From: a virus
Lineage: Duplodnaviria; Caudoviricetes
Length of the DNA stretch: 64,000 bases
Strand: one strand, 5' to 3'
IMG/VR virus record: IMGVR_UViG_3300005444_000009
Coordinates: 2,191 to 66,190 of that record
Part shown: positions 31,735 to 55,707 of the stretch, piece after piece
How the letters are laid out: the number at the start of each line of letters is the position of its first letter
Position numbering within the stretch: position 1 is the stretch's first letter
The notes under the pieces: model-generated
What the model was told of the DNA's origin: nothing
What the model saw: the letters and a program-made list of their open reading frames with translations, nothing else
The model's database searches: none
Position numbers and translations under genes: made by a program

Positions 31735-32277
31735 GTGACCGTTGAGATCATCGAGGCCGCCCCGGACGCTGACGTCCCGGGCGGTTCCTCATTTCTAGCC
31801 GACGCACTGACACACGACGATGAGGTCGACAGCGACGCGACGCAGGTACTCCAGAGCGTCGCGTGGCCAATGGACCCGGAACTCGAGCCTAATCCTCCAC
31901 GTAGGTCGTGGTACCGTCGCGCCCTCGGCGTTCTGCGTCGAGCTCTGGCGTGCGTTCGAGAGTCTGTCGGCCGGTTGACCAGCGGCATCGACGTCGCTAC
32001 CCGGCGTTGGGTCTACGCCGGTCGGCACCACATCGTCAAGCCCGTAGGCCACCGGGTTCGCACGACCCCGCTCGGACGTGACCGGTCCACCTCCGAGTAC
32101 AGCCGCGCCGTCCAGCGGCGCACCCGCGAGGCCGCCGACCAGGAGGGTGACTTAGCCGACTACTTCCGACCCGGCGACACGTTCGTCGACTGGTGGACCG
32201 CGACGCACGAGTCGCTCCGCCGGGCGCAGTTCAACCGCAAGTATCTACCGGCGCACGGTGAGTGGCTATGCTCATAA
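31735..32277 (+). CDS. Hypothetical protein
   Basis: 180-aa ORF translationally coupled to the kinase gene. Confidence 0.6.
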   Translation: MTVEIIEAAPDADVPGGSSFLADALTHDDEVDSDATQVLQSVAWPMDPELEPNPPRRSWYRRALGVLRRALACVRESVGRLTSGIDVATRRWVYAGRHHIVKPVGHRVRTTPLGRDRSTSEYSRAVQRRTREAADQEGDLADYFRPGDTFVDWWTATHESLRRAQFNRKYLPAHGEWLCS

Positions 32278-33344
32278 TCCTCGAGGGGCCGGACGGCGTC
32301 GGTAAGACGACGCTGGCCGAGAAGCTGCGTTCACTGATTCTCAAGGTCGATCCACGGAGCACGGTGTGCGTGCTGCGCAAGGGTCCGCCGACGTCTCATC
32401 CACTGGATGAGTACCTCACGCCGCTGCTCAACTACCGGCCGAACCAGGGACTTCACCTGATCCTCGACCGTTGGCACATCGGCGAGTGGGTATACCCACG
32501 CCTCAGCTACCGCAACTCTCAACTCGATAACGCGGTGTACTGGTACCTCAACCAGTGGATTCGCCGACTCGGCGGCCTACTGGTGTACTGCCACACCGAC
32601 GCGGCGCGCGCCGAGCAGATCTACCGTGAGAGAAGCTCAACCCACTACTTCGAGCAACCCGGCGTGTACGAGAAGGCTGAGCTGCTGTTCACCCAGGCGT
32701 TGAACTTGGCCGAGCTTCCGCAGGTGACCTACGACTGGGACGATCCCGAGGTCGTCGACCCGGCGAACATCGTGCGCACGGCACAGACTCGCGACGACTA
32801 CATGACGCACCTTAACGACTTCGTGACATATGTCGGTCGACGTCGTCCCGAGTACCTACTGGTTGGTGAGGTGCGACACGGCCTCGACGTCCAGGCGCAG
32901 CAGTCGTTCTCAACCGATCCACGTCCGGCGTTCATGCCCTACCGAGCGACGTCGGGCCACTGGCTCATAAGTTCACTTCTCACCAGTGAGAGGTTGCGCC
33001 AGTCGGCGGGACTGGCCAACGCGTGTGACGTCGACGACGTACACGCCCTGTGGTACCTCCTGGACAAGCCTAAGGTAGTCGCACTGGGTCGCAGCGCAGC
33101 CAAGGAACTTGGTAGGATCGGCGACATACCGTTTGGGATCACGCCGCACCCGCAGTTTGGCCGACGCTTTCACTACCGAGATCAGGCGTCATACGCGGAT
33201 ACGATCTTTCGCGCACTCGAGAATCAGGAGGACCACTCTAAGTGGCGAGGCTCATTGAAGGACGCTACGGCTGTGACATCTACGGCGAGGTCATTGAGAC
33301 CGTTAGGCGCTTCGGTAGACGGCAAGACTCCCGCAACGGAGTAG
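32268..33344 (+). CDS. dNMP (thymidylate-like) kinase fused to a UDG-fold domain
   Basis: LIILEGPDGVGKTT, ILDRWH; C-terminal LLVGE...SGHWL...VVALGRSA...HPQF. Confidence 0.75.
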   Translation: MLIILEGPDGVGKTTLAEKLRSLILKVDPRSTVCVLRKGPPTSHPLDEYLTPLLNYRPNQGLHLILDRWHIGEWVYPRLSYRNSQLDNAVYWYLNQWIRRLGGLLVYCHTDAARAEQIYRERSSTHYFEQPGVYEKAELLFTQALNLAELPQVTYDWDDPEVVDPANIVRTAQTRDDYMTHLNDFVTYVGRRRPEYLLVGEVRHGLDVQAQQSFSTDPRPAFMPYRATSGHWLISSLLTSERLRQSAGLANACDVDDVHALWYLLDKPKVVALGRSAAKELGRIGDIPFGITPHPQFGRRFHYRDQASYADTIFRALENQEDHSKWRGSLKDATAVTSTARSLRPLGASVDGKTPATE

Positions 33345-34192
33345 TCTACGACCTATCCGACATCACAATTTCTCTCGAGTCGCCGCTGAACGCGCTGCCC
33401 GTCGGCTGCGGACGTAACCTCAACCCGCGTATCGCCGCGGCGGAGGCTCTTCAGCTAATCGGCGGCTTCACCGAGCCTGAGTGGTTGTGCCGCATCGCGC
33501 CGCAATTCAGTAGATTTCGCGAGGATATCGTCATCGGAAGCAGCAAGTCGCCTTGGTTTCACGGCTCATACGGCATGAGAATCAGTACGAGTAACCAGCT
33601 CGAGGTTGCTTACCGACGCCTGTACTCGACTCCAGAGACTCGACAGGCGGTCGTGACGCTGTGGGACCCTAAGATGGACACCGAGGAGGATCACCTCGAC
33701 TACCCGTGCACCGTCGCGCTCAACTTTAGGTTGAGTGGCACGCACTATCGGCAGCACGATCGCCTCAACATGCAGGTACTGATGCGATCAAACGACGTGT
33801 GGCTCGGTCTTCCCTACGATCTGTTCCAGTTCACGCAACTTCAGTTGACGATGTGCAATGTACTTGGCGTTCAGCCCGGCACGTACACACACACAGCGTG
33901 GTCGATGCACCTCTACCTCACCGACCTCGAAAAGTCATATGACGTGACCGATACACTCAACACTCCTAAGCTAATGCCGCACGTTCGTGGCTTCGGCGGG
34001 CGTGGCGAACACTTCATTGAGGCACGTGATCGTGCACGTCACACAGCTCTTCGTGTTATAGAAGATCCGACCGAAAGTGAGAAGTGGTATCTTGACACCC
34101 TCAAGGACTTTCCCATTAATCCATCCTCGGTCGACGTGGCACCAGACCCGGATCGCGATGGCGCGGGAGCTGGCGAAGCGCAGTCTGTGTGA
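33242..34192 (+). CDS. Thymidylate-synthase-fold enzyme, probable dCMP hydroxymethylase
   Basis: YPCT catalytic Cys; MRSNDVWLGLPYD has Asp at the specificity position. Confidence 0.8.
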   Translation: MARLIEGRYGCDIYGEVIETVRRFGRRQDSRNGVVYDLSDITISLESPLNALPVGCGRNLNPRIAAAEALQLIGGFTEPEWLCRIAPQFSRFREDIVIGSSKSPWFHGSYGMRISTSNQLEVAYRRLYSTPETRQAVVTLWDPKMDTEEDHLDYPCTVALNFRLSGTHYRQHDRLNMQVLMRSNDVWLGLPYDLFQFTQLQLTMCNVLGVQPGTYTHTAWSMHLYLTDLEKSYDVTDTLNTPKLMPHVRGFGGRGEHFIEARDRARHTALRVIEDPTESEKWYLDTLKDFPINPSSVDVAPDPDRDGAGAGEAQSV

Positions 34193-34631
34193 CCGCGACC
34201 AGGTCGGCTGCATCATTACCGACGCCAACAACAAGGTCATCGGCGAGGGCTACAACGGTCCGCCGCGCGGCTTCTGGCACGGCAACGCGTCGTGCTCAAG
34301 CTGGTGTCAACGCACCGTGAACGCGATGATCGACTCGGATCAGGGGATGTACGCCGACTACTCGGACTGCCCCGCGCTCCACGCGGAGGCCAACGCCTTG
34401 ATGATGTCGGATCGAACGCTACGTGCCGGCGGTACGATCTACGTCACCAGTAACGTCTGCATCGGCTGCGCGAAGCTCATCGCCAACTCAGGTCTTGCGT
34501 CTGTAGTCGTCGAAACCGAGTCGGCCGCGGAGCACCGCAACCCCAGTAAGTCATACGAGTTCTTAGTTGGCTGCGGACTCAACGTGCGCGTTAACTCCGT
34601 GGACTTAAGTAGGAAGGCAACACAGGAGTGA
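34077..34631 (+). CDS. dCMP deaminase
   Basis: RSLCDRDQVGC, GYNGPPRG, LHAEANAL, CIGCAKLI. Confidence 0.9.
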   Translation: MRSGILTPSRTFPLIHPRSTWHQTRIAMARELAKRSLCDRDQVGCIITDANNKVIGEGYNGPPRGFWHGNASCSSWCQRTVNAMIDSDQGMYADYSDCPALHAEANALMMSDRTLRAGGTIYVTSNVCIGCAKLIANSGLASVVVETESAAEHRNPSKSYEFLVGCGLNVRVNSVDLSRKATQE

Positions 34632-40250: not shown

Positions 40251-41016
40251 CACGGACAACGTCGCGTCATTCCTCATCTTCTCCAACTCGAAGGAGGGTA
40301 AGTCGACGCTGGCCAGCACGGCGCCGCTACCGCTTCTCGTGCTGGACGCGGAGGGAAGTTGGAAGTTCATCGATGAGGTCGGCTACAAGTCTGGGGTGCC
40401 GCTGCGTAAGAAGGCGTGGAACCCGATGCTCGAGCCGATCCCGCGGTACGACGGCACGTGGGACGTCGTGCGCGTTCACGTCGACTCGTGGCAGACCATG
40501 CAGCAGGTCTACCGTCACCTCACGCAGGTGGAGCACGACTTCGTCACCATCGTGCTGGACTCGGTAACCGAGCTCCAGCGGCGCTGCAAGGCGAACATCC
40601 GCACCACCAGTCCGCAGATGGACCAGCAGCGCTGGGGTCAGCTGCTGGACGAGATGGACGGCGTCATCCGCGGGTTCCGCGACCTGACGCTGCTCAGCAA
40701 CACGATTCGCTGCGTCGTCTTCGTGTCAGAGATGGCTATGAAGGACGGCCAGTTCCGGCCCTACATGCAGGGTCAGATTCGTGACACCATGCCGTACTGG
40801 GTCGACGCCTGCGGCTGCCTCTTCACCGAGCTCCGCCCGAACGGCGACCAGCAGGTTAAGGTGAAGAGGCTGCTCATCGGCGCCGGCGTCAGCGCGGCGC
40901 ACGTTGTCGGCGAACGCTTCCAGGGGCGGCTGCCCGACATCGTGGACAACCCGAACATCACCGAAATGATGAACGCAATCTATCCAGGCACGAACGGTAG
41001 CAAGGAGAGCAAGTGA
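40234..41016 (+). CDS. Sak4-like AAA ATPase / ssDNA-annealing protein
   Basis: Start reassigned to ATG 40234; SKEGKST, LDAEG, IVLDSVTELQ. Confidence 0.8.
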   Translation: MNRVVDTDNVASFLIFSNSKEGKSTLASTAPLPLLVLDAEGSWKFIDEVGYKSGVPLRKKAWNPMLEPIPRYDGTWDVVRVHVDSWQTMQQVYRHLTQVEHDFVTIVLDSVTELQRRCKANIRTTSPQMDQQRWGQLLDEMDGVIRGFRDLTLLSNTIRCVVFVSEMAMKDGQFRPYMQGQIRDTMPYWVDACGCLFTELRPNGDQQVKVKRLLIGAGVSAAHVVGERFQGRLPDIVDNPNITEMMNAIYPGTNGSKESK

Positions 41017-41627
41017 GCGAAATCGACTGGGCATCACTACACAAGGACGCGACAACCACGCTGACCGGCGACTTTCCCGTCGTCATCGTGGAGGCCACCG
41101 CGCAGAAGACCAGTAACGGCGACAAGGACATGATCAAGTACAAGGCCAAGGTCGAGTCCGGCCAGTACGCGGGTCGACCGCTGTGGGGTAACTTCACCAT
41201 CTCCCCCGAATCCCCGGGAGCCATGCGGATCCTGTTCTCGCACTGGGCCGCGCTCGGCATCGACGGCGCCTTCTTCCAGGCCAACCCGCAGGCCCCCGTG
41301 GCCGTGATCGCGCAGGCGCTGGTGGGTCGCAAGGCAATCGTCACCATCGGCACGCGCCAGTGGAACGGCGCCGACCGCGAGGAGATTCAGGCGTGGAAGC
41401 CGCCGGCGATCGGTCAAGCTGCAGGTGTCATTGGTGGTCTGCCGGGGCTTCCCAGCGGTATTCCCAACGCGGGCGGTAATCTCGGCTTGCCGATCGCTAC
41501 GCCGCCCGCAGCCACCGGTAAAGGCGTGCCTCCGATGCGCATGGCCTCCGTTCCGGAGGCCGGCGCCGTCGCCACCGAGCCGGCGGTCGCCGAGAACGGT
41601 GAGGCTCCGCCCCAGCTTCCGTTCTAG
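41013..41627 (+). CDS. ssDNA-binding protein (DUF669-like)
   Basis: OB-fold-like pattern after the AAA gene; flexible tail ending PPQLPF. Confidence 0.7.
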   Translation: MSEIDWASLHKDATTTLTGDFPVVIVEATAQKTSNGDKDMIKYKAKVESGQYAGRPLWGNFTISPESPGAMRILFSHWAALGIDGAFFQANPQAPVAVIAQALVGRKAIVTIGTRQWNGADREEIQAWKPPAIGQAAGVIGGLPGLPSGIPNAGGNLGLPIATPPAATGKGVPPMRMASVPEAGAVATEPAVAENGEAPPQLPF

Positions 41628-41655: not shown

Positions 41656-41686
41656 AGAGTGGTGGATGTGAGACATCCACCACTCT
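41656..41686 (+). promoter_or_regulatory. 14-bp inverted repeat overlapping a possible extended -10
   Basis: AGAGTGGTGGATGT-GAG-ACATCCACCACTCT, just upstream of the DNA glycosyltransferase operon. Confidence 0.5.
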
Positions 41687-41708
41687 CATCCTAAGTGAGG
41701 AGTGAACT

Positions 41709-43052
41709 TTGAGAAAGCGAGTCGGCTACGCGAAGCTCGGCCGGTCGATGCCCCTAGCGCTCGAGAACTGCGGCAGCCTCGGCGGCGACGTCGAGATGGT
41801 GCCCACACTGAAGCTGCTGGCGGAGCGTCACCCAGACGTGGACTTCATCCTGATCGGCCGGAACTCGGGTGAGCTGCCCGAGGACGTCGGTCTGCCGAGC
41901 AACGTGCTCAACCCGTGGCGAGTCTGGAAGCCGATCATTCGGCGTGAGCTTCAACGTGCGGGCCTGAACTACTCGAACCTGACGATCCCCGACCACCGTG
42001 AGGTTACCGCGCTGATTCACAAGTACACCTGGGAGGAGTTCAGCCTCCTCGATGAAATGATCATGTGGCTTGGCCAACACGGCACCACGAACACACCTCT
42101 GCCGTCCGTCAGCGATCGTCAAAAGCTCACCAAGCCCTACGACTGGGCGACGCTGTATGGCTCGTACCTGCTGCAGGGAATCAACGCCTGGCGCGACGTC
42201 GACCCACTTAACCGCGAGGAAGTGCTGCTCAACGCGGACGTTCGCAACTACGTCAAGTACCGCGACAGTAAGTGGCCGTGGCAGCATCCTGTACTGGCAC
42301 AGTACACGTACACAAACAATGTGAAGCACGAGAGGTACGGCGCCGACACAGACATGTTCCTAGAGTTCTCACAGCGCCCAGTGTCAGACAGTGTGAACTG
42401 GATCGAGAACGGCGCGATCTGGACGTCGCGAGTCCAGAACGTCTACTCACGCCTAGAGATCTCGTCGCTGATTCCCGGCACGCCGTTCGGCGACACGATC
42501 AAGTTCAACGGCGACTTCAACCGGCCGCACGACTTCGGCATCGTCGTCAACGAAACGCGGCGTGAGGTCAGCGAGGCGAAGGCACGCCGCACGGTGCTGC
42601 GCGACTGGGTGCTGCCGATTGACAACATTGGGTTCATTCACGGTAAGTGGTCGCAGCGCTCGCTGGACGAGCTAGGCGTCGACATCAATCCGGTGCCGCA
42701 GCTCGAGTACATCCCGAAGCTGCAGACCGCGCGGTGCACCTTCACGACACCGGCCAGCGGCTCGGGCTGGGCGACCGCGAAGCCGTGGGAGGCGTTCGCC
42801 GCGGGAGTGGTGTGCTTCTTCCACCCAGACTACGATGACCAGAACAACATCCTCGGTGACATGCGCAACCGGGAGGTCGCCGACTGGCTTCGCTGCGAGA
42901 GTCCGCAGCAGCTCGCGGATCGAATCAGGTACACGTGCTACAACCGTGAGGTCTGGGAGTGGCTCGTCGACGAGCAGCGTGAGCACTTCAACAAGGCGGT
43001 CGAAGAGAAGACGTACCTTAAGATGATCGAGGAGAGGTTAGACCTGCCGTGA
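41709..43052 (+). CDS. T4 beta-glucosyltransferase-like DNA glycosyltransferase (GT-B)
   Basis: C-terminal KPWEAFAAGVVCFFHPDYDDQNNIL...LADRI...EQREHFNK parallels T4 BGT as recalled. Confidence 0.7.
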   Translation: MRKRVGYAKLGRSMPLALENCGSLGGDVEMVPTLKLLAERHPDVDFILIGRNSGELPEDVGLPSNVLNPWRVWKPIIRRELQRAGLNYSNLTIPDHREVTALIHKYTWEEFSLLDEMIMWLGQHGTTNTPLPSVSDRQKLTKPYDWATLYGSYLLQGINAWRDVDPLNREEVLLNADVRNYVKYRDSKWPWQHPVLAQYTYTNNVKHERYGADTDMFLEFSQRPVSDSVNWIENGAIWTSRVQNVYSRLEISSLIPGTPFGDTIKFNGDFNRPHDFGIVVNETRREVSEAKARRTVLRDWVLPIDNIGFIHGKWSQRSLDELGVDINPVPQLEYIPKLQTARCTFTTPASGSGWATAKPWEAFAAGVVCFFHPDYDDQNNILGDMRNREVADWLRCESPQQLADRIRYTCYNREVWEWLVDEQREHFNKAVEEKTYLKMIEERLDLP

Positions 43053-43897
43053 GAGGTTCATCAGGCGCACGGTTCATTGACAGTTCTCCCGTTATGATCA
43101 CTAAGCAAGACACGGCCGTTACCGGTCGACGTGTACGCGACCAGGGGATCTGGCTCCAGCAGCTGAACGAGTCGTCCGTGCTTCCTGTAGTCTTCGCGGT
43201 GCACCAGAATCGCTACGACATGGAGCGACTCGACGTCGGCACCATTCCCACCACGTGGGAGCAGACGTTCGAACTCTGCAGCGACATCATCGCTGAGTTG
43301 GAGACTCACCTGTGGTACAAGAACTTCAAGGGACGCGTGCCGCACCTCATGGAGTTCGACCGTGGTGAGCACAACGGCTACATCATCGACCTCCTGACGG
43401 ACGTCGGGCTGCGCAGCTACCGCCGAAAGCTTCACCAGTTCGTTGGGAACGTCGACTGGTTCGGCTACAAGACGCCGCGGGTGGCGCGTACGCACGGCGA
43501 CTGCATCATCGACAACGTCGCCTGGCGGCGCACCGAGTCAGAACTTAACAAGCTGGTGCTGCTCGACCCGATTCCTGCGACGTCGGCGCTACCCGACCTC
43601 GCCTGCGTCGACGTCGGCCGCGTCATCCAGTCCGCCGCTGGCTACGAGGTGACGCGCTACTTCGAGGACACGCGGCCGCTGCTCGGCATTCCACTCGATC
43701 AGCGTGTTGACGACGTCCTTAACGGCTGGCTAAGTGATGAGTTCTGTCTCAACGAGGTACGCGCGTCGCTTCACTTCAGCATCATTCACATGCTGCGCGG
43801 ACTACGCACGGCGCAGCGCGTCGCACCTAAGAGCTGTAAAGCTCTCGAGCTACTAGTCGATCAACTTGTGGAGGTTACAGAGACGTGGATGCAGTAA
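43049..43897 (+). CDS. APH/choline-kinase-fold phosphotransferase (putative sugar kinase)
   Basis: THGDCIIDNV and LLDP motifs. Confidence 0.75.
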   Translation: MRGSSGARFIDSSPVMITKQDTAVTGRRVRDQGIWLQQLNESSVLPVVFAVHQNRYDMERLDVGTIPTTWEQTFELCSDIIAELETHLWYKNFKGRVPHLMEFDRGEHNGYIIDLLTDVGLRSYRRKLHQFVGNVDWFGYKTPRVARTHGDCIIDNVAWRRTESELNKLVLLDPIPATSALPDLACVDVGRVIQSAAGYEVTRYFEDTRPLLGIPLDQRVDDVLNGWLSDEFCLNEVRASLHFSIIHMLRGLRTAQRVAPKSCKALELLVDQLVEVTETWMQ

Positions 43898-44610
43898 TCC
43901 TCGCCGGCGGCAGGGGACAGCGCGTCGCCGGCATTACCAAGCTGTTTCACAAGCCGCTGCTCGAGATCGAGGGTGAGCCTCTGCTCCTGCGCGCCGTTCG
44001 GCAGGCACGTAGCCTCGGCGTCGAGGTACCCGTAGTCGTTACGTCGCCAGCCATCGCCACGCTGGTAGCGCAGGTCCTCGGCGACGTACCCGCTAACCTG
44101 ATCATCCAGCGTGAGCCGCTTGGACCGGGCGACGCTCTTCGGGTCGGCCTGCAGGTGCGCAACCGCAGCGTCGGCAGCTACCGCGTTCTCGTGCTGCTGA
44201 GCGACAACTACACCAGCGACGCCGACCTCACCGCGGTCTGTTCGTACGAGGTCGCCGTCGGCGTGCACACCACCCCGCGAGCCGAGGCGCAGCGATTCAC
44301 ATGGTACGACCCCGACCGCGACACGTGGATCGAGAAGCAGACCATTCCCGACGGCTCACCCGTGGAGTGCTGGGTCGGACCGTTCGTGGGTTGGCGTAGT
44401 AAGATGGAACGCGTTATGAGTCGTGTGTGTGAAACTCGTAAGCTCAACGGCGGTGAGGCCCTCATCGGCCCGTACCTCGGAGAAATGACCAACGAGACGC
44501 GCACGGTTCGGGTTGAGGTCGACTCGATCGACGTCGGTACCGTCGAGTCTTACCAAGCAGTGAAGGAGCGAGTAGGTGACTCAAGTATTGCCGTCGGACG
44601 ATCCCACTGA
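43885..44610 (+). CDS. Sugar-1-phosphate nucleotidyltransferase
   Basis: VILAGGRGQR...HKPLL; LLSDN; DVGT. Confidence 0.85.
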   Translation: MDAVILAGGRGQRVAGITKLFHKPLLEIEGEPLLLRAVRQARSLGVEVPVVVTSPAIATLVAQVLGDVPANLIIQREPLGPGDALRVGLQVRNRSVGSYRVLVLLSDNYTSDADLTAVCSYEVAVGVHTTPRAEAQRFTWYDPDRDTWIEKQTIPDGSPVECWVGPFVGWRSKMERVMSRVCETRKLNGGEALIGPYLGEMTNETRTVRVEVDSIDVGTVESYQAVKERVGDSSIAVGRSH

Positions 44611-44737
44611 CGAGGCACTCAAGGGACACATCGAGGGAAACCCGTGGCCGTGCGCCGTCATGGTGTTGATCGTCTGTCTAACGTTCCTCGGCATATGCCT
44701 GGGGGGCGTCTACATGGTTGTGAATTTGAGGCAGTAA
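44576..44737 (+). CDS. 53-aa TM microprotein
   Basis: Not in ORF track. Hydrophobic C-terminal half; TAATG coupling to next gene. Confidence 0.5.
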   Translation: MTQVLPSDDPTDEALKGHIEGNPWPCAVMVLIVCLTFLGICLGGVYMVVNLRQ

Positions 44738-45402
44738 TGAACGCTATGGACACGTTCTCGCGCATGCTGAAGCTGCAGGAGCAGCTTCAAACCGAGTCAT
44801 TCGGGTACAACTTTCAGCAGATGCTGGCGTCCGAGCGCATCCAGTACGTCAAGGACATGAAGTTAGCCCTAGAGGCGGAGCTTCAGGAGGCGCTGGACGA
44901 GACGTGGTGGAAGCCGTGGACTAAGCCACGAGGTTCGTGGGTTAACCGTGAGGCCTACTTCGGCGAGCTGGTGGACGTACTCCACTTCTGGATGAACATG
45001 ATCCTGGTGCTCGGCGACGACCCGGAGGAACTCGCCAGTGAGATTTTCACGCGCTACTGCCTGAAGAATCACATTAACGAGCGGCGCCAGCGTGAAGGCT
45101 ACGACGGCGTCTCGACGAAGTGTGGCGGCTGCGGCCGTGCGCTAGACGACACAGCGGTCGCGTGTCGCCGTGTCGGCGATCAAGGGTGGTGCGCGTCTCG
45201 CAATGCAGACATCAACTATATCGGTGACGGCGCGAGTCGAGACGCAAAAGCTGAGTTGAAGCCAATTAAGCCGGTGATCTGTGAGCACTGCCGCTACACG
45301 ATCAACGAGCACGGCTGTGTTCCAGCGACGATCGAACGGTGGGGTCACTGCGGCGCCGACCAGCGGCAGCTGCCGCCGATCAAGCCACACGCGATACAGT
45401 AG
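44737..45402 (+). CDS. Dimeric dUTPase/dCTPase (all-alpha NTP-PPase) with C-terminal Cys motifs
   Basis: Start reassigned; ELQEALDETWWKPW and GELVDVLHF. Confidence 0.8.
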   Translation: MNAMDTFSRMLKLQEQLQTESFGYNFQQMLASERIQYVKDMKLALEAELQEALDETWWKPWTKPRGSWVNREAYFGELVDVLHFWMNMILVLGDDPEELASEIFTRYCLKNHINERRQREGYDGVSTKCGGCGRALDDTAVACRRVGDQGWCASRNADINYIGDGASRDAKAELKPIKPVICEHCRYTINEHGCVPATIERWGHCGADQRQLPPIKPHAIQ

Positions 45403-45406
45403 CATC

Positions 45407-46927
45407 GTGACGTATACCGCTATCGACTGTCAGGGATTCGCCGGAGGCTTCACGCTAGGAGTAGCGCAGGCTGGCTTTAAGCTGGTGGCTAAGCGTGAGA
45501 TGAAGGGTGGCTTCGGGGTTCGAAACTGCGAGGTCAACCGGCACCTCCTCGGCGACTCGTGGACAGTCGAGGCGGTCAACCCGGAGGCGTGGTCCGTGCC
45601 GCTCGGCGGCGCGGACCTCGTCTTTGGCAACCCACCCTGCTCAGGATTTAGCGTGCTCTCTACGAAGAGCTTTCGCGGCACCGACTCGAAGATCAACGCC
45701 TGCATGTGGGCCTTCGCCGAGTACGCGGCGCGGGTTCGTCCAGCGGTCGCCGTCTTCGAGTCGGTGCAGCTCGCGTTTACCCAGGGACGATCGCTGATGC
45801 AGGACCTGCGGACACGCGTCGAGGAGTTGACCGGTGAACAGTGGGAGCTCTGTCACGTGCTCCACAACGCCTACTCGGTCGGCGGACCGGCGATGCGTAA
45901 GCGCTACTTCTGGGTCATCAGTCGGATTCCGTTCGGCGTCGAGGTGCCGAGGTTTGACCGCTACCCCGTGCTCACCGACGTCATCGGCGACCTCGAGTTT
46001 CAGCCCGAGGCGTGGGAGGCACGACCGTACCGCGATGACGCTACGTGGTACTCAGCGCAGTTGAGGAATGTGTTCACGGGACGTGTGGACGGTCACATCT
46101 CGATCGATAACCCGAACACACGACGCACACGATCACTTCTCGCAGCGGTTGAGTGGAATCCCGGCGAGCACGCGCAGGTCGTGACTCGGCGCTACTTCGA
46201 CGAGCACGGCGATCTTCCACCCGGGTGGGAGCACCTCGTGGATAAGCTGAAGGGGCAGGACTTCTTTCAGGGATTCAACACTCCCACGATGTGGCGGCCC
46301 AGCGAGTGGGCACGCGTCATCACGGGCGCCGGTATGCTCAACGGCGTTCACTGGTCCCAGCAGCGCACATTTACGCACCGTGAGACGGCGCGAATCCTCG
46401 GGTTTCCGGACTCGTGGCTGATCGACCCGCTGCGCGGCGCACCTAACCTATTCCTCACCTGGGGTAAGGGCATCACGGTTCACTGCGGCCGGTGGATCGC
46501 AGAGTGGGTCAAGCGTGCGCTGGACGGTAGACCCGGAACGCACGTCGGTGAGGTCATCGGTGAACGTGAACATCGCATTGACGTAACAAACGCCTGGCGA
46601 GTGAACTGTGGTACAGTTAGCTCGACTACGATAATCAACCGGAAGGTGAGCACCATGACCGAAGCAGCCGTGGAAGAGGCTGTCGCAGCTCCGAAGGGCC
46701 GTCCTCGTCCCAACGACACCATCGAGCGGGACGAGCTGGTCTTTAACATCCTCGTCGAGCCGATGAGCCGTGAGACGCTCGCTCTGAAGCTCACCGAGGC
46801 GGGTACCCCGATGGAACCGAAGCTGATCTACCTGAGCCTCTACCGCCTGCGGCGGGACGGCCGGATTGAGGGCAAGCGCGCCGACGGCGCGCACAAGTGG
46901 TCTCGCGTCGAGGCTCCGGCAGCCTAA
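45407..46927 (+). CDS. DNA cytosine-C5 methyltransferase-like enzyme with C-terminal winged-helix domain
   Basis: Start reassigned to GTG 45407; GNPPCSGFS, FESV, RKRYF, RETARILGFP; atypical motifs I and X. Confidence 0.75.
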   Translation: MTYTAIDCQGFAGGFTLGVAQAGFKLVAKREMKGGFGVRNCEVNRHLLGDSWTVEAVNPEAWSVPLGGADLVFGNPPCSGFSVLSTKSFRGTDSKINACMWAFAEYAARVRPAVAVFESVQLAFTQGRSLMQDLRTRVEELTGEQWELCHVLHNAYSVGGPAMRKRYFWVISRIPFGVEVPRFDRYPVLTDVIGDLEFQPEAWEARPYRDDATWYSAQLRNVFTGRVDGHISIDNPNTRRTRSLLAAVEWNPGEHAQVVTRRYFDEHGDLPPGWEHLVDKLKGQDFFQGFNTPTMWRPSEWARVITGAGMLNGVHWSQQRTFTHRETARILGFPDSWLIDPLRGAPNLFLTWGKGITVHCGRWIAEWVKRALDGRPGTHVGEVIGEREHRIDVTNAWRVNCGTVSSTTIINRKVSTMTEAAVEEAVAAPKGRPRPNDTIERDELVFNILVEPMSRETLALKLTEAGTPMEPKLIYLSLYRLRRDGRIEGKRADGAHKWSRVEAPAA

Positions 46928-50880: not shown

Positions 50881-51957
50881 TTACGCCTGGCTACGCCGCC
50901 CGAGCGGGCTGGATCGCTGGATAGCCAGCGCGTCAGCCCACGACTCCCACCAGCGCCAGGCGTTTTCCTCGATGGTCTGCTTCGAGACGGCCTCACGCGA
51001 CTTAGCGCCGAGCTCCAGCCGCGCCTGCTCACTGTCGATCAAGGTGCGCAGCTTAGTCTTCCACTCACTAGGTTTACTGGCGAGCCAACCAACGCCGAGC
51101 TTATGTAGGCGAGAGTACTCGGCGCGCGGAGACGCAATCGCTGGAATGCCAAGGGCGCCATACTCAAGCAACTTAAGCCACGACTTCGCCGCATTGAACT
51201 TACTGTCGGCCAGTGGAGCAACGCCGATGCCGAGTGAGTTGACGGCTAGCGGCCACGCCTCGATGTCGACCGGTCCCGTGAACTCGATTTCAACGCTCAG
51301 CGGCACACCGAACGCCTTATGGATGCCGTCGAGCGGCCCGGCGATCTTGAACTTAGCGCCGAGCTGTAGAAGCTGCGCCGGCGTGGGTCCCATCACCTGT
51401 AGGTCGGTCGGGTGGGAGTGAACCGAGCCTGCCCAACCCACGACGTTCGAGTCGACGTGAGGCACGTCAAGCATCATCTTCGGTACCGCGTTGTAGAGCA
51501 CTCGACCACGACCGTGCTTGGCATATCGCTGCAGTAGCGCCGGCGTCGACACGGTGACCAGCGTCGCAGTCTCACAAGCCAGCAGCGTGTTCTGCCACGA
51601 GTGATCGGCGTACGGGCTGCTCGGGTGAAGCATGTGAAACGCCGGATTCGCTGGGTGAATGCACGTTAGGTCGTCGTCCATGTCGACAACCACGGCGATG
51701 CCGTTCTGCCGCAGCAGCGCGAACGCCTGTACCAGGTACTTATGCGTAACACGCTGGAACACGATTACGTCGGCGTCGCGCGGCACGTTCACCGAGACCA
51801 TTCGATCGCCACTCATCTTCGCCTGCAGCGCGCGGTTGCGCTCCCTCGTTGCCACGATCTCGATGGAGTGACCCATTCGTTGGAGCTGCTCCGCCGGCCA
51901 GATCAGGCGATAGTGTCCGCAGCCTGCCTCATCCGCGGGAAAGACATAGACCTTCAC
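50881..51957 (-). CDS. GT-B (GT4-like) glycosyltransferase
   Basis: GCGHYRL, VDMDDD, KSWLKLLEYGALGIPAIAS. Confidence 0.85.
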   Translation of the reverse strand: MKVYVFPADEAGCGHYRLIWPAEQLQRMGHSIEIVATRERNRALQAKMSGDRMVSVNVPRDADVIVFQRVTHKYLVQAFALLRQNGIAVVVDMDDDLTCIHPANPAFHMLHPSSPYADHSWQNTLLACETATLVTVSTPALLQRYAKHGRGRVLYNAVPKMMLDVPHVDSNVVGWAGSVHSHPTDLQVMGPTPAQLLQLGAKFKIAGPLDGIHKAFGVPLSVEIEFTGPVDIEAWPLAVNSLGIGVAPLADSKFNAAKSWLKLLEYGALGIPAIASPRAEYSRLHKLGVGWLASKPSEWKTKLRTLIDSEQARLELGAKSREAVSKQTIEENAWRWWESWADALAIQRSSPLGRRSQA

Positions 51958-52205
51958 CTACGAACCGCCTTCCACGCTGGACGAAGCTCCCACGAAGGCA
52001 CCTCGTAGCCGATCGCGTCGCATATGATAACGAAGCATGGAATACAGAATATGCCGCCCGGATCGTAGCCGGTCCATGGTTCACTCTTCCACTCGGCGAC
52101 GACGTTGTTCCAGAACGTGCTCTCGGTCCACCAGCGAACGTTAACCACGCCGCAGATCTGGCACGGACCATCACCCACAAGGTGTTCCGGAATGATCGCT
52201 ACCAC
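51954..52205 (-). CDS. Small Cys-containing protein
   Basis: CQIC...CIPC. Confidence 0.55.
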   Translation of the reverse strand: MVAIIPEHLVGDGPCQICGVVNVRWWTESTFWNNVVAEWKSEPWTGYDPGGIFCIPCFVIICDAIGYEVPSWELRPAWKAVRR

Positions 52206-52786
52206 CGGTCCGTCCTTCCCGAGGTGTTATAACCGTGATGATGCCACGTCCACGTGATCTCTGGAACGTGAAGAAATCGCGCGCCGAGGTCCAGCAGTCG
52301 AAGGTAGAATCCCCAGTCGTCGTAATCTGACTGCACGGATGCCGGTGGTCCGAAGAGCGCCTGCTGCGCCAGTCCCGTGTGCACCAGCGACGTTACCGGA
52401 ATGTATGATTGCTTTCGAAGCAAGTCGGCGTCGAACGGCCTACCGAAGCGACCCCACTCGTCGTTGAGAGGAATTGATACACCGGCGGCGTCAACTACAC
52501 GGCAGCCGCTGTACACCACCGTAGCGCCCTCTCGAAGCGCGTAGTGGACCAGTATGTCGAGGTGCTGCGGCAGTAACTCATCATCATCATCCAGGAACGC
52601 TACCCACGATGTGTTGGCCTGCACCAGCGCGCGGTTGCGAGTTGCGGCCGAGCCCTCACGCTTCGTATCCACACTGATAATGATGTCCACCGGCTGGTGC
52701 ACCTGCGCCGCGACGCTGGCAACGGCGCGCGTCAGCTCAAACTGTCGCGTAGGAATGTGCGGCGTCACTACGGTTACTCGATCCAC
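52199..52786 (-). CDS. GT2-family glycosyltransferase
   Basis: Start reassigned to GTG 52786; TRN, VAFLDDDD, YDDW. Confidence 0.85.
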   Translation of the reverse strand: MDRVTVVTPHIPTRQFELTRAVASVAAQVHQPVDIIISVDTKREGSAATRNRALVQANTSWVAFLDDDDELLPQHLDILVHYALREGATVVYSGCRVVDAAGVSIPLNDEWGRFGRPFDADLLRKQSYIPVTSLVHTGLAQQALFGPPASVQSDYDDWGFYLRLLDLGARFLHVPEITWTWHHHGYNTSGRTDRW

Positions 52787-52787
52787 G

Positions 52788-53363
52788 TCACCACCTCGTT
52801 GAGAGTCCACTGGTGTGTGAACCGTGTAGTCGATAGTGCCAGGTGATCTTATCTGTTCCCGCGAAGTTGCCACCACTGAGCTCTGAGCAGCGCAGTACGA
52901 ACATCCAGTCCTCACCCATCCAGTCCTGGTGTAGCGGACCGTTAGGCAGTAAAAAACCCGCCTCCTTGGCTAGCTCGGTGCGCACCATCACCGTCATTGT
53001 CGTGTGATGCGGCTCAGCGGGATTCCACTGCCGACCACGGTGCATCGGGAACGGGTTGTTGCCGTCGAACCACGAGTACACGTAGTCGGCGTTGAGGTCG
53101 TGCGCGAGTGACCACAGCGTTTCGATGTGATCAGGGTAGAAGTAGTCGTCATCATCGAGGAACGCGACCCACGACGTGCGAACACCGTCTAAAGCTCGCT
53201 GGCGGTTGATCGCGGCGCCGTGCTTCTCGACGTCGAGCGAACACGAGATGCCGCCGGTGAGTGACACGGTTTGTCCGTGAACGCTCGCGACTGCGGCCTG
53301 CAGTAGGTTGTCGACCCGCGGTGGAATTGCCGAGATCGCGACGGTTACGTCGAGTTCAGTCAC
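52788..53363 (-). CDS. GT2-family glycosyltransferase (paralogue)
   Basis: Start reassigned to GTG 53363; VAFLDDDD, GEDW; same TSG..RW ending as its neighbour. Confidence 0.85.
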   Translation of the reverse strand: MTELDVTVAISAIPPRVDNLLQAAVASVHGQTVSLTGGISCSLDVEKHGAAINRQRALDGVRTSWVAFLDDDDYFYPDHIETLWSLAHDLNADYVYSWFDGNNPFPMHRGRQWNPAEPHHTTMTVMVRTELAKEAGFLLPNGPLHQDWMGEDWMFVLRCSELSGGNFAGTDKITWHYRLHGSHTSGLSTRW

Positions 53364-53872
53364 CGCTTCAGAGCTCCTACGGCGCACTGCCACCTAGGTC
53401 GTGGATCGGCAACCGGCCAGAGCAGCTTGACCTCATCCATGTCCATCGAGGTAACGTTTGACCAGCCTGTGTCTTCCAGTAGCTCCATGATTCGCTGCTC
53501 AGTGCACTCCCACAGGTGAACGTCGCCCATCCAGCGACCTGCGCCGAAGCGCAGCGAGTCCAGCGTAGCTCCGTACTCGTCGGACCCAGTTTCGCCGAGC
53601 AGTTCACGGCCGCGAGTGACGTCCGGGCCAACTACCATGATCGCACCGTTGTTGATCATACATGCACGTAGGTTCACCAGCAACCTACCGGCGTCCACCA
53701 GGTTGAGGTGCTCGAGCACGTGGCCTAGATAGGCGCACTCAACGCTGTTCGCCGGCCACGGCAGGTCACCAGCTAGGTCGACACGCTGGTCTACACGGTG
53801 CGGCATCTCTGGTAGGTCGACGTTGATCCAGCCGTCTGCGTAGCGATCTCCACAGCCGAGGTTGAGCTGCAT
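53360..53872 (-). CDS. Class I SAM methyltransferase
   Basis: Start reassigned; LNLGCG, INVD, GHVLEHL. Confidence 0.85.
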   Translation of the reverse strand: MQLNLGCGDRYADGWINVDLPEMPHRVDQRVDLAGDLPWPANSVECAYLGHVLEHLNLVDAGRLLVNLRACMINNGAIMVVGPDVTRGRELLGETGSDEYGATLDSLRFGAGRWMGDVHLWECTEQRIMELLEDTGWSNVTSMDMDEVKLLWPVADPRPRWQCAVGALKR

Positions 53873-53883
53873 ATTCACCTCAC

Positions 53884-55095
53884 TTAGATAATGATAGGAG
53901 CCGGAATCGGCACGATCCAGCGTCCGTCGCTGGCCGTGAACTGCTGCTCGTTTCGCATGATCGAACCCGCGTAGTTCCACGCCAGTAGTAGGTACGTATC
54001 TACGTGCTCAGTGGCCGTAGGTTTGCAGATCTTGATGGCGGTACCGGGAATGTAGCGGTCTTGCTTGGCGATCGTCGTATCCGTTACGAACTTAACGAGA
54101 CTTCCGTCAATACCGCAAAAGTTGAGTAGCGTCGTCGCCTTGGCTGGCGCGCCGTAGCCAGCGACCACACGTCCGGCGGCACGTTCAACCATGAGCAGCC
54201 GCAGAAGCCGCTCTCGCAGGCGCTCAGCACGTCCCTGAAGACCAAGGTAGACGTTCGTGTCGGCTAACCAGGCCTCGGAGTTGCTGATGCTTGAAACCGC
54301 TCTCAACGCCTCACTCTTCCGACGTAGCTTGACACGTAGTGAGCCACCCTGTCGATCGGTCAACTGTGCGTCTACGACGTAGAGACCGTGATTACGAGCG
54401 GCTGATCGTAAACTGGTTAGTGAGAAGAAGTTGCGGTGCTCGTGATACACCAAGTCGATCGCGTTGTTGAGCAGCATGTCCGGCAGGTACTGCACCTCAA
54501 CGTAGACGACGCCGTCGTGCGTAAGCAGTTCATCAACACCTGCAAAGACATCGGAGACGCTTTCAACGTGAGCGAGGACGTGGTTCGCGACGATGACGTC
54601 GGCAGGTCCGTGCTGCGCGTGGATCTCGTGAGCTAGGTTACGACCAAACGGCTTGACGATCGTTTCAATTCCTCGCATTCCCGCGACCTCAGCGGGACCG
54701 AGCGCGGGATCGACGCCGAGGACGCGCCAGCCAGCCTGTGTGAGGTGACGCGAGAAGTCTCCGTCATTTACACCGATCTCAACGACGAACGGCTTTCTCG
54801 CGAGGCCGCCGTCTCGTAGGTGCCACTCGTTGAGAACGTCACTCGCGTAGCGCGTGTGATATGCTGACAGCGGCGCAGACGCGCTGGAGTAGAACGAGTA
54901 GCCGGAACCGAACAGGTCCGGTACGACCTCGAGAAGCTGAACCAGATGACAACCGGCACAGACCGCGAGCTGCAGTGGGTAGTGCGTGACTGACTCATCG
55001 TCCTTAGTGTAGTTGTCGGCGATTGGCGACAGCCCGAGGTCGAGGATTAGCCGGAGGTCGTTGTAGCCGCAGGCGCTACAGTTGGTTCTCTTCAC
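53884..55095 (-). CDS. NDP-hexose C-methyltransferase (TcaB9/NovU/EryBIII-like)
   Basis: CSAC/CAGC zinc site, VEIGVNDG, ANHVLAH, YHEH, GYGAPAKATTLLN. Confidence 0.88.
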   Translation of the reverse strand: MKRTNCSACGYNDLRLILDLGLSPIADNYTKDDESVTHYPLQLAVCAGCHLVQLLEVVPDLFGSGYSFYSSASAPLSAYHTRYASDVLNEWHLRDGGLARKPFVVEIGVNDGDFSRHLTQAGWRVLGVDPALGPAEVAGMRGIETIVKPFGRNLAHEIHAQHGPADVIVANHVLAHVESVSDVFAGVDELLTHDGVVYVEVQYLPDMLLNNAIDLVYHEHRNFFSLTSLRSAARNHGLYVVDAQLTDRQGGSLRVKLRRKSEALRAVSSISNSEAWLADTNVYLGLQGRAERLRERLLRLLMVERAAGRVVAGYGAPAKATTLLNFCGIDGSLVKFVTDTTIAKQDRYIPGTAIKICKPTATEHVDTYLLLAWNYAGSIMRNEQQFTASDGRWIVPIPAPIII

Positions 55096-55707
55096 TCATC
55101 TGCTCCACTTCGCGTTAAAGATCTGTTCAGCACGCTCTCTCATCTCACGTGATTTCTCGGTCTTGTAGCCGAGAACGGTGTGATGGTGCGTATCGATGTC
55201 CGCGACGTAGACGCGCTTACCGGCGCGTTTTGCCTCGAGGCAGACGTCGTCGTAGCCGTGAAACTCGTAGCGCTCGTCGAAGCGCAGCTCCTGGATCGCC
55301 CACGGCGAGAACGCCATGAACGATCCCTCCACGATGTCAACGTCACCCGCTTGTCGGCCGAAGTCGATAAGCTGTGCGTCGGTAAGCTGGTGACCGACCG
55401 GGTCGACGTTCCACCAGTGAAGAGACGGTCCTCCGCCAGCGACACCAATGATCGCGATCTCTGGGACCGTAAAGATAGAGACGACTTTATGTTCAGTTAA
55501 TGGATCAGTCATCTCAAGGTCATCATGCAGCAAAATGACAGCGTCTAGGTCATAGACCCGGAAGCCGTCTAGGATCGCGTTGTAGGCCACCGAGATCGAC
55601 GTCTGGTTGAACGCCGTCAGAACTGGTCGGTCCTTCGGAATACGTGGTTCGACGTACCTATGAAACTTGTCCCACGTGCCGACGCAGCATCCGTAGCCAA
55701 TCTTCAT
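55096..55707 (-). CDS. GT2-like glycosyltransferase (StrF-like)
   Basis: AYN, LHDD, IIGVAG, FDERY.FHGYD. Confidence 0.75.
   Translation of the reverse strand: MKIGYGCCVGTWDKFHRYVEPRIPKDRPVLTAFNQTSISVAYNAILDGFRVYDLDAVILLHDDLEMTDPLTEHKVVSIFTVPEIAIIGVAGGGPSLHWWNVDPVGHQLTDAQLIDFGRQAGDVDIVEGSFMAFSPWAIQELRFDERYEFHGYDDVCLEAKRAGKRVYVADIDTHHHTVLGYKTEKSREMRERAEQIFNAKWSR

Follow-up and report, generated by a model that had tools for sequence, protein, structure and literature searches.

A candidate pathway for glycosyl-5-hydroxymethylcytosine DNA with a phage-made sugar donor in an uncultured, actinophage-type genome

The window analysed here is a stretch of 64,000 nucleotides covering nearly all of an uncultured viral genome (IMG/VR record IMGVR_UViG_3300005444_000009, positions 2,191 to 66,190). 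At 41709-44610 it carries three consecutive genes (Table 1), predicted to encode a glycosyltransferase, a sugar kinase and a sugar-1-phosphate nucleotidyltransferase (NT), called below the transferase, the kinase and the NT. By fold as well as by profile, the transferase is truly, if distantly, related to the DNA beta-glucosyltransferase of phage T4 (BGT, CAZy GT63 lineage). Our reading of the locus, to which we give a probability of about 0.7, is that the DNA of this phage contains glycosyl-5-hydroxymethylcytosine, and that the sugar donor is made by the phage.

Under this reading, a thymidylate synthase (TS) homologue would convert dCMP into hydroxymethyl-dCMP (hm-dCMP), and cytosine would thus be replaced by 5-hydroxymethylcytosine (5hmC, hmC) at the nucleotide level. 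A P-loop kinase would phosphorylate hm-dCMP, a pyrophosphatase resembling T4 gp56 would clear dCTP, and a deaminase would maintain the dTMP supply. After replication, the transferase would move a sugar from a nucleotide-sugar to the hydroxymethyl group in duplex DNA. For the donor, the APH-fold kinase would phosphorylate a sugar, most simply at its anomeric carbon, like maltokinase, methylthioribose (MTR) kinase and AmgK, and the NT would join the sugar phosphate to a nucleoside monophosphate, the pair being a split and reordered counterpart of the bifunctional enzyme AfhE. Glycosylation should block restriction enzymes and Cas nucleases; if all this is true, such phage DNA may also resist cloning and some sequencing chemistries, new DNA sugars become known, and hmC labelling could draw on a family of DNA glycosyltransferases that differ in the donors they accept.

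To our knowledge, what is understood of glycosylated cytosine in phages comes almost wholly from those of Gram-negative hosts (T-even, RB69, DLP3, RL38J1). T4 is the precedent for the base pathway and for the lineage of the transferase, and RB69-type phages are the precedent for the donor-supply logic. The module described here would join the T4 base and a T4-type transferase to an RB69-type donor supply, with donor genes swapped at one fixed site. A literature search found no description of a T4-type base and transferase combined with an RB69-type donor supply, nor of a BGT-lineage enzyme with a private donor, a swappable cassette site or an actinophage setting; PMC13326640 makes no mention of Actinobacteria or Streptomyces.

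An AlphaFold2 model of the transferase, built on 41 homologues, had a mean predicted local distance difference test (pLDDT) score of 87.6. Searched with Foldseek, this model returned T4 BGT entries at ranks 1 to 6, with a best E-value of 2.7e-9. T4 BGT was also first with VIA-align (Z 22.2, root mean square deviation 3.6), where 311 of the 351 BGT residues were aligned at about 12% identity; BshA, the next family, scored Z 17.9, and the T4 alpha-glucosyltransferase about 16. In a library of viral structures the best named match was a metagenomic 'DNA beta-glucosyltransferase', and a search of the ESM Atlas returned unnamed viral clusters only.

Sequence comparisons pointed to the same enzyme. 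A broad profile (A3), derived from a family alignment including remote representatives, matched T4 BGT and nothing else in the whole PDB (E 3.6e-8, BGT residues 149-349). A narrow profile (A1) reached T4 BGT at E 0.086 only, and a single-sequence phmmer search of the transferase against the PDB gave no match. In a global hhalign comparison of the transferase family with BGT, a probability of 93 and an E-value of 4.4e-8 were obtained. Both HMMER and hhalign set the T4 BGT segment RVWETMASDAVMLIDEEFD opposite KPWEAFAAGVVCFFHPDYD in the transferase. This is the C-terminal parallel which a preliminary description of the window, made from the letters alone, had drawn in calling the gene BGT-like, and the A1 match lies over the same stretch. 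The same description gave the transferase about 100 residues more than BGT, close to the 96 that separate 447 from 351. BGT residues R195, R269 and E272, which we take to be UDP-binding (nucleotide-binding), align with R293, K358 and E361 of the transferase. R293 and K358 are invariant in both profiles; for E361 this is true of A1, and in A3 its conservation is 90% or more. The family is large: 706 matches were found in a database clustered at 90%, many of them on contigs of 60-100 kb, and at 50% identity there were 378 representatives with E at most 0.001, of which 107 reach E 1e-30.

We then considered where relatives of the transferase are encoded. Sixty-three IMG/VR loci encode such relatives, with 29-99% identity, usually in the order P-loop kinase, TS homologue, deaminase, PolA, then further on a gene resembling single-stranded-DNA-binding proteins (SSB), the transferase, a slot of variable content, the pyrophosphatase and a gene similar to C5-cytosine methyltransferases. 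Dozens of independent metagenome contigs show this order, so that the locus is more than a chance assembly. Of the 38 loci whose upstream sequence extends to 9 kb or more, 35 have the TS homologue, in counts that include some near-duplicate loci. In L057, L063 and L065, three differently arranged genome types, the transferase is still no more than 1-3 kb away from the TS homologue, and in L057 and L063 the P-loop kinase still adjoins the latter. Gene linkage supports the predicted action of the transferase on 5hmC in duplex DNA.

A counterpart was found in a phage of an unrelated host. A tblastn search with the transferase against GenBank phages gave a sole match, in the unannotated Pseudoalteromonas phage vB_Psh_XG4 (PP712099); megablast of the trio against the same phages gave none. 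The XG4 module (L069:100-7552) encodes, in order, a TS homologue with the signature of T4 gp42, an AfhF-like HAD protein resembling RB69 gp51, a 559-residue NT-APH kinase fusion, a transferase of the window family, a second GT-B enzyme, a C5 methyltransferase-like protein (L069:5363-6580) and a gp56-like pyrophosphatase. The AfhF-like phosphatase and the NT-APH kinase fusion thus stand directly before the transferase. The XG4 transferase matched the window transferase family with hhalign (probability 99.5, E 3.9e-23) and T4 BGT with BLASTP (E 7e-5 over 282 residues), so that at the sequence level it bridges the two. Recurrence of the whole set in a marine gammaproteobacterial phage argues that the module is a functional unit. 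XG4 is cultured, and its virion DNA is open to direct analysis.

These observations bear on a first alternative, in which the transferase acts on an acceptor other than DNA (for example a small molecule, a protein of the virion or a polymer of the host cell wall) and its place in the replication operon is incidental. Similar GT-B enzymes do take many acceptors, and BshA, PimA, MshA and OGT scored Z 15-18 with our model; BGT nevertheless stands about 4 Z units above the other GT-B families and is the only one to be matched by sequence in the PDB. The uncertain equivalent of the BGT catalytic aspartate (see below) leaves this alternative some room, yet three genome rearrangements and the jump to a gammaproteobacterial phage have left the transferase linked to a cytosine-specific TS homologue. 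The genome also has a separate cassette of GT1, GT2 and methyltransferase genes at 50881-55707, of a kind linked to virion glycosylation. In relatives, at least its GT1 gene, and both GT2 genes where the flank reaches, are kept whatever the slot next to the transferase holds, so that it looks like a system of its own. A non-DNA acceptor is in our view unlikely.

Concerning the donor, a word-indexed search yielded 24 homologues of the kinase, in which K19, E59, H149-G150-D151...N156 (HGDxxxxN) and D173 are invariant. These residues fit the beta-3 lysine, alpha-C glutamate, HGDxxxxN loop and metal-binding aspartate of the APH/choline-kinase (eukaryotic-like kinase) fold, and the bilobal AlphaFold2 model (pLDDT 93) has this fold, as the preliminary description had proposed. 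An N-terminal RGSSGA is conserved among the homologues, which places the start at GTG 43049. Foldseek put first two enzymes that act on an anomeric carbon, mycobacterial maltokinase and MTR kinase, with choline kinase and APH also matching. With VIA-align, choline kinases, APH enzymes, maltokinase and glucosamine kinase were tied at Z 14-16.6 over 237-260 residues. One of the homologues has a PF01636 match; hhalign against the kinase domain of RB69 gp52 gave a probability of 74 and E 2.8e-5, and phmmer against the PDB chance LexA matches only (E >0.1). The fold is thus clear in the model and the catalytic motifs are intact, a sugar kinase being the predicted role.

The NT, recognised as such from the start, matched PF00483 (E 1.1e-12) and PF12804 (E 1.2e-12), both over its N-terminal 120 residues, and has the signature LAGGRGQR...KP (GGxGxR...K motif). 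Its best relatives in the PDB were HddC (E 4.9e-8), RmlA, mannose-1-phosphate guanylyltransferase and MurU. NCBIfam matches were spread over many sugar-1-phosphate nucleotidyltransferases with none singled out, and the match to RB69 gp53 was weak (E 0.013).

The content of the slot directly after the transferase was examined in the 50 loci where it is complete, and nucleotide-sugar genes were found in 48 of them. An MtdL-type GT75 pyranose-furanose mutase (E 1e-29 to PDB 7XPR) was present in 14 loci, the same type of mutase with a GDP-mannose 3,5-epimerase (E 8e-64 to plant GME) in 11, and the epimerase alone in 9. The kinase and NT pair of the window was found in 7 loci, an NT-APH kinase fusion with a KpsF-type arabinose-5-phosphate isomerase in 4, the NT alone in 3, and no nucleotide-sugar gene in 2; examples of slots are L020:5458-6603, L041:11265-12260 and L053:11293-13394. 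In L053 and L058, NT and APH-fold kinase are fused in one protein at the slot, and L053, L054, L056 and L058 carry the fusion together with the isomerase. Two assignments made on the way were changed. From Pfam matches (RGP, Epimerase), the cassette of the relatives was taken for a plant-type UDP-arabinose mutase with a generic epimerase, until comparison with the PDB identified a GDP-L-galactose/fucose mutase (MtdL) and a GDP-mannose 3,5-epimerase. The SIS protein of L053 was likewise taken at first for a possible heptose isomerase (GmhA), and NCBIfam places it with the KpsF/GutQ arabinose-5-phosphate isomerases.

It could be that the kinase and the NT do not feed the transferase with a sugar, and instead make a CDP-alcohol-type donor, like the choline kinase LicA and the cytidylyltransferase LicC, or supply the cassette at 50881-55707. 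Choline and ethanolamine kinases head the VIA-align comparison of the kinase model (Z 16.6-15), the NT matched no model in its C-terminal half, which binds the substrate, and a second set of transferases is indeed present in the genome. That second set is invariant with respect to slot content, however, while the three genes of the trio overlap start to stop and the slot of the relatives holds undoubted nucleotide-sugar enzymes, namely the epimerase, the MtdL-type mutase and the KpsF-type isomerase. Besides, the homologous NT-kinase enzyme of RB69 and HY126 is reported to make UDP-arabinose (PMC13326640). On balance, we regard a role of the pair other than supplying a sugar to the transferase as quite improbable.

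As to which sugar is used, the preliminary description had proposed a self-contained pathway for a non-glucose sugar, by analogy with the arabinose of RB69. The term self-contained proved too strong, given that no sugar-supplying isomerase or phosphatase was found in the window: a search for an isomerase, a HAD phosphatase, MtdL or GME found none, and tblastn with RB69 gp51, RB69 gp55 and the SIS protein of L053 gave nothing significant at E up to 1. The lack of an RB69-type isomerase and phosphatase would indicate direct phosphorylation of a free sugar, as in salvage of the AmgK-MurU type. Since the sister clade of the window phage carries the NT alone, a common host sugar-1-phosphate, glucose-1-phosphate included, may be the one that is used, and the exclusion of glucose was dropped. 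The RB69 analogy holds for the logic of donor supply by an NT and a kinase but has to be revised, RB69 having its arabinose on 5-hydroxycytosine rather than hmC and no BGT homologue (PMC13326640).

The differing slot cassettes suggest, from their gene content, that several different sugars are put on DNA inside one phage clade. On a quick IQ-TREE tree of the transferases, cassette type is clustered, with 19 changes compared to 40 for shuffled labels, which may reflect shared descent alone. Sister phages with switched cassettes do occur, for example L019 and L020. A more ambitious version of our reading is that the slot receives exchangeable sugar-donor cassettes, with which one family of the BGT lineage would put several sugars not known from DNA so far on hmC: a salvaged sugar in the window phage, L-galactose or L-galactofuranose through GDP-mannose epimerase and MtdL-type mutase in some relatives, and arabinose through the NT-kinase fusion and the KpsF-like isomerase in others. 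In it, the linked C5 methyltransferase-like enzyme would be a working part of the pathway and not an ordinary methylase. We put this version forward tentatively, and would not bet on it at even odds. In L019, a 203-residue protein with no Pfam match is encoded between the kinase and NT genes (L019:12124-12735); it could perform an extra step of sugar activation, for example as a phosphatase or an isomerase.

The acceptor base would be made by the TS homologue, whose top PDB match is the CMP hydroxymethylase MilA. It was aligned with E. coli ThyA, T4 gp42 and RB69 gp48 taken from public records. At ThyA numbering it has C146, L143D, a conserved D169 and N177D, the same residues as T4 gp42; RB69 gp48 differs by D169N. 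This gp42 signature was found in all 26 linked TS homologues that could be read at the four positions, XG4 included, and in three more, truncated or present only in the first table, every position read agrees. A 2026 paper (PMC13326640) reports that RB69 and DLP3 DNA contains arabosylated 5-hydroxycytosine made by TS homologues, and proposes D169N as diagnostic of a 5-hydroxycytosine synthase, N177D of cytosine specificity and an acidic residue 143 of a non-methyl product. By this rule, the TS homologue of the window, with its conserved D169, would be a hydroxymethylase.

The P-loop kinase and pyrophosphatase genes named along with an Asp-type TS in the preliminary description are present as well (Table 1), as is the Asp-type TS itself, N177D pointing to cytosine specificity. 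RB69p045, a 'nucleotide kinase' adjoining the RB69 TS homologue, matches 32262-32504 in the P-loop kinase gene (E 2.8e-6). The pyrophosphatase is 50% identical to T4 gp56 over 46 residues by BLASTP (E 2e-9).

The least probable alternative is a base other than 5hmC: the product of the TS homologue would be 5-methyl-dCMP or, as in RB69, 5-hydroxy-dCMP, and the transferase would use this other base or an acceptor that is not DNA. Proven 5-hydroxycytosine synthases do include TS homologues with N177D and an acidic 143 (PMC13326640), the NT-kinase logic is shared with 5-hydroxycytosine phages, and the C5 methyltransferase hints at some unmodified cytosine. Against this, Asp169 is retained by the window protein and by every linked homologue, that of XG4 among them, when every tested 5-hydroxycytosine synthase has D169N (PMC13326640), and the transferase resembles the hmC-specific T4 enzyme when 5-hydroxycytosine phages have no BGT homologue (PMC13326640).

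The module can thus be compared with several known systems. It sits in a nucleotide operon of T4 style, and shares with T4 the TS homologue of gp42 signature, the gp56-like pyrophosphatase, the dCMP deaminase and the transferase, for which BGT is the closest relative. It departs from T4, which uses host UDP-glucose, by having its own kinase and NT; its nucleotide kinase is a dTMP-kinase-like fusion protein and not gp1-like, its transferase is longer and divergent, a C5 methyltransferase-like gene is added and the replisome is based on PolA. Phages RB69, DLP3 and HY126 likewise combine a TS homologue, an adjoining thymidylate-kinase-like 'nucleotide kinase', a DNA glycosyltransferase and a phage-made donor from an NT and an APH-fold kinase. 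Their TS homologues make 5-hydroxycytosine and carry D169N, though, and their transferases are GT4-like, whereas that of the window belongs to the BGT lineage. Enzymes of the AfhE type (RB69 gp52:53, DLP3 gp82, HY126 AfhE) are single proteins in the order NT-kinase, instead of two genes in the order kinase-NT. All three phages also have an arabinose-5-phosphate isomerase and a HAD phosphatase, of which none was detected in the window.

The succession of an APH-fold anomeric kinase and a sugar-1-phosphate nucleotidyltransferase is found again in the AmgK-MurU and NahK-GlmU pairs, MurU being among the matches of the window NT. Those pairs are cellular and serve cell-wall recycling, and action of the window kinase at C1 is proposed by analogy. 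Finally, in the sugar pathway of the antibiotic A201A, the GDP-mannose 3,5-epimerase MtdM acts with the GDP-L-galactose mutase MtdL (PMC9937993). Homologues of one or both occupy 34 of the 50 complete slots in the relatives; there they adjoin a DNA-type transferase and not an antibiotic cluster, and the window has neither.

Several points weigh against a glycosylated hmC with a phage-made donor. The first concerns catalysis: in the forced global hhalign, the catalytic Asp100 of BGT is set opposite A160, at a place where the alignment has no confidence, its N-terminal part being unreliable. In the model, a helix at 147-164 and a strand at 172-175 are followed by A-D177-V-R179, which parallels the BGT strand followed by D100-I-R102. 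In the broad alignment no more than seven residues are invariant, D177 among them. Judged by the order of secondary structures, D177 is the likely equivalent of Asp100. Second, no model of Pfam-A, PHROG or NCBIfam matched the transferase at E at most 0.01, nor the kinase; for lack of a curated family match, the transferase is best described as a separate, unnamed sister family of BGT. Third, the fold of the kinase fails to tell sugar kinases from choline and aminoglycoside kinases. Fourth, the glycosyltransferases of the cassette at 50881-55707 could use up the donor too. Fifth, the C5 methyltransferase-like gene was found in 42 of the 42 related loci having at least 5 kb of downstream flank, some near-duplicates included, plus XG4, and its product in the window keeps the PPC, ESV and RKR motifs when compared with M.HaeIII; such a seemingly intact and always linked enzyme would find no substrate on fully substituted DNA. 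Lastly, the genome is an uncultured viral record, and folds, motifs, homology and conserved linkage are the observations from which we infer the base, the donor, DNA as the acceptor and a biological effect.

The positions of the genes are reported in Table 1. The three genes of the trio were found as open reading frames where the preliminary description had placed them, on the + strand and with overlapping starts and stops. In the GTGA at 43049-43052, the TGA stop of the transferase overlaps the GTG start of the kinase, with GAGGAG about 10 nt 5' of it, and the kinase and NT genes overlap by 13 nt, with GGAGG 5' of the NT start. On this sequence evidence the trio is translationally coupled. 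Ahead of the TTG start at 41709 are a GAGGAG Shine-Dalgarno site and, at about 41660-41690, a stem-loop. The gene adjoining the trio upstream is the one that had been called SSB; its position was correct, and its identity as SSB is weak.

Table 1. Genes of the window named in the text, in window coordinates.
Gene	Position	Strand	Length and assignment
Transferase	41709-43052	+	447 residues, TTG start; GT-B glycosyltransferase of the T4 BGT lineage, predicted DNA hmC glycosyltransferase
Kinase	43049-43897	+	282 residues; APH/choline-kinase fold, predicted sugar kinase feeding the NT
NT	43885-44610	+	241 residues; sugar-1-phosphate nucleotidyltransferase
P-loop nucleotide kinase	32262-33344	+	dTMP kinase N-terminal match (TIGR00041, E 5.8e-6); predicted hm-dCMP kinase
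TS homologue	33242-34192	+	PF00303, E 2.9e-19; would make the acceptor base
dCMP deaminase	34077-34631	+	PF00383, E 9e-16
Weakly SSB-like gene	41013-41627	+	PHROG 378, E 6.8e-5; DUF669, E 0.0036 (below cut-off)
Pyrophosphatase	44644-45402	+	dUTPase_2/MazG-type NTP pyrophosphatase, all-alpha; PF08761, E 2e-9; PHROG 18650, E 1.1e-33; predicted dCTPase in the role of gp56
C5-cytosine DNA methyltransferase-like gene	45281-46927	+	PF00145, E 2.4e-17
Glycosyltransferase cassette	50881-55707	-	GT1, GT2, GT2, methyltransferase, NDP-hexose C-methyltransferase, GT2-like gene

The complete record is 66,190 bp long, has direct terminal repeats and was judged complete; G+C content is about 61%. Between about 29 and 50 kb the + strand carries the genes for replication and nucleotide metabolism, and those 5' of the trio further include PolA, an SNF2 helicase, an exonuclease and a Sak4-like protein. 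PolA is nearest to the PolA of Microbacterium and Arthrobacter phages, and relatives of the window phage carry WhiB. This gene content supports an actinophage-type, siphovirus-type setting with a PolA-based replisome, in line with the actinophage first proposed. The locus comes from a large clade of soil actinophages that is uncultured throughout.

Some minor observations were made on the neighbouring genes. The role of the cassette at 50881-55707 is probably virion glycosylation. In the P-loop protein (360 residues), the first 80 residues or so match nucleotide kinases, and the C-terminal two thirds have no family match. Since the 44644 reading frame is matched by its family only from about residue 35 onwards, the true start of the pyrophosphatase is probably ATG 44737. 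A strongly hydrophobic open reading frame of 25 codons lies just upstream (44660-44737), with a TAA stop overlapping that ATG, and may encode a small membrane peptide or be due to chance.

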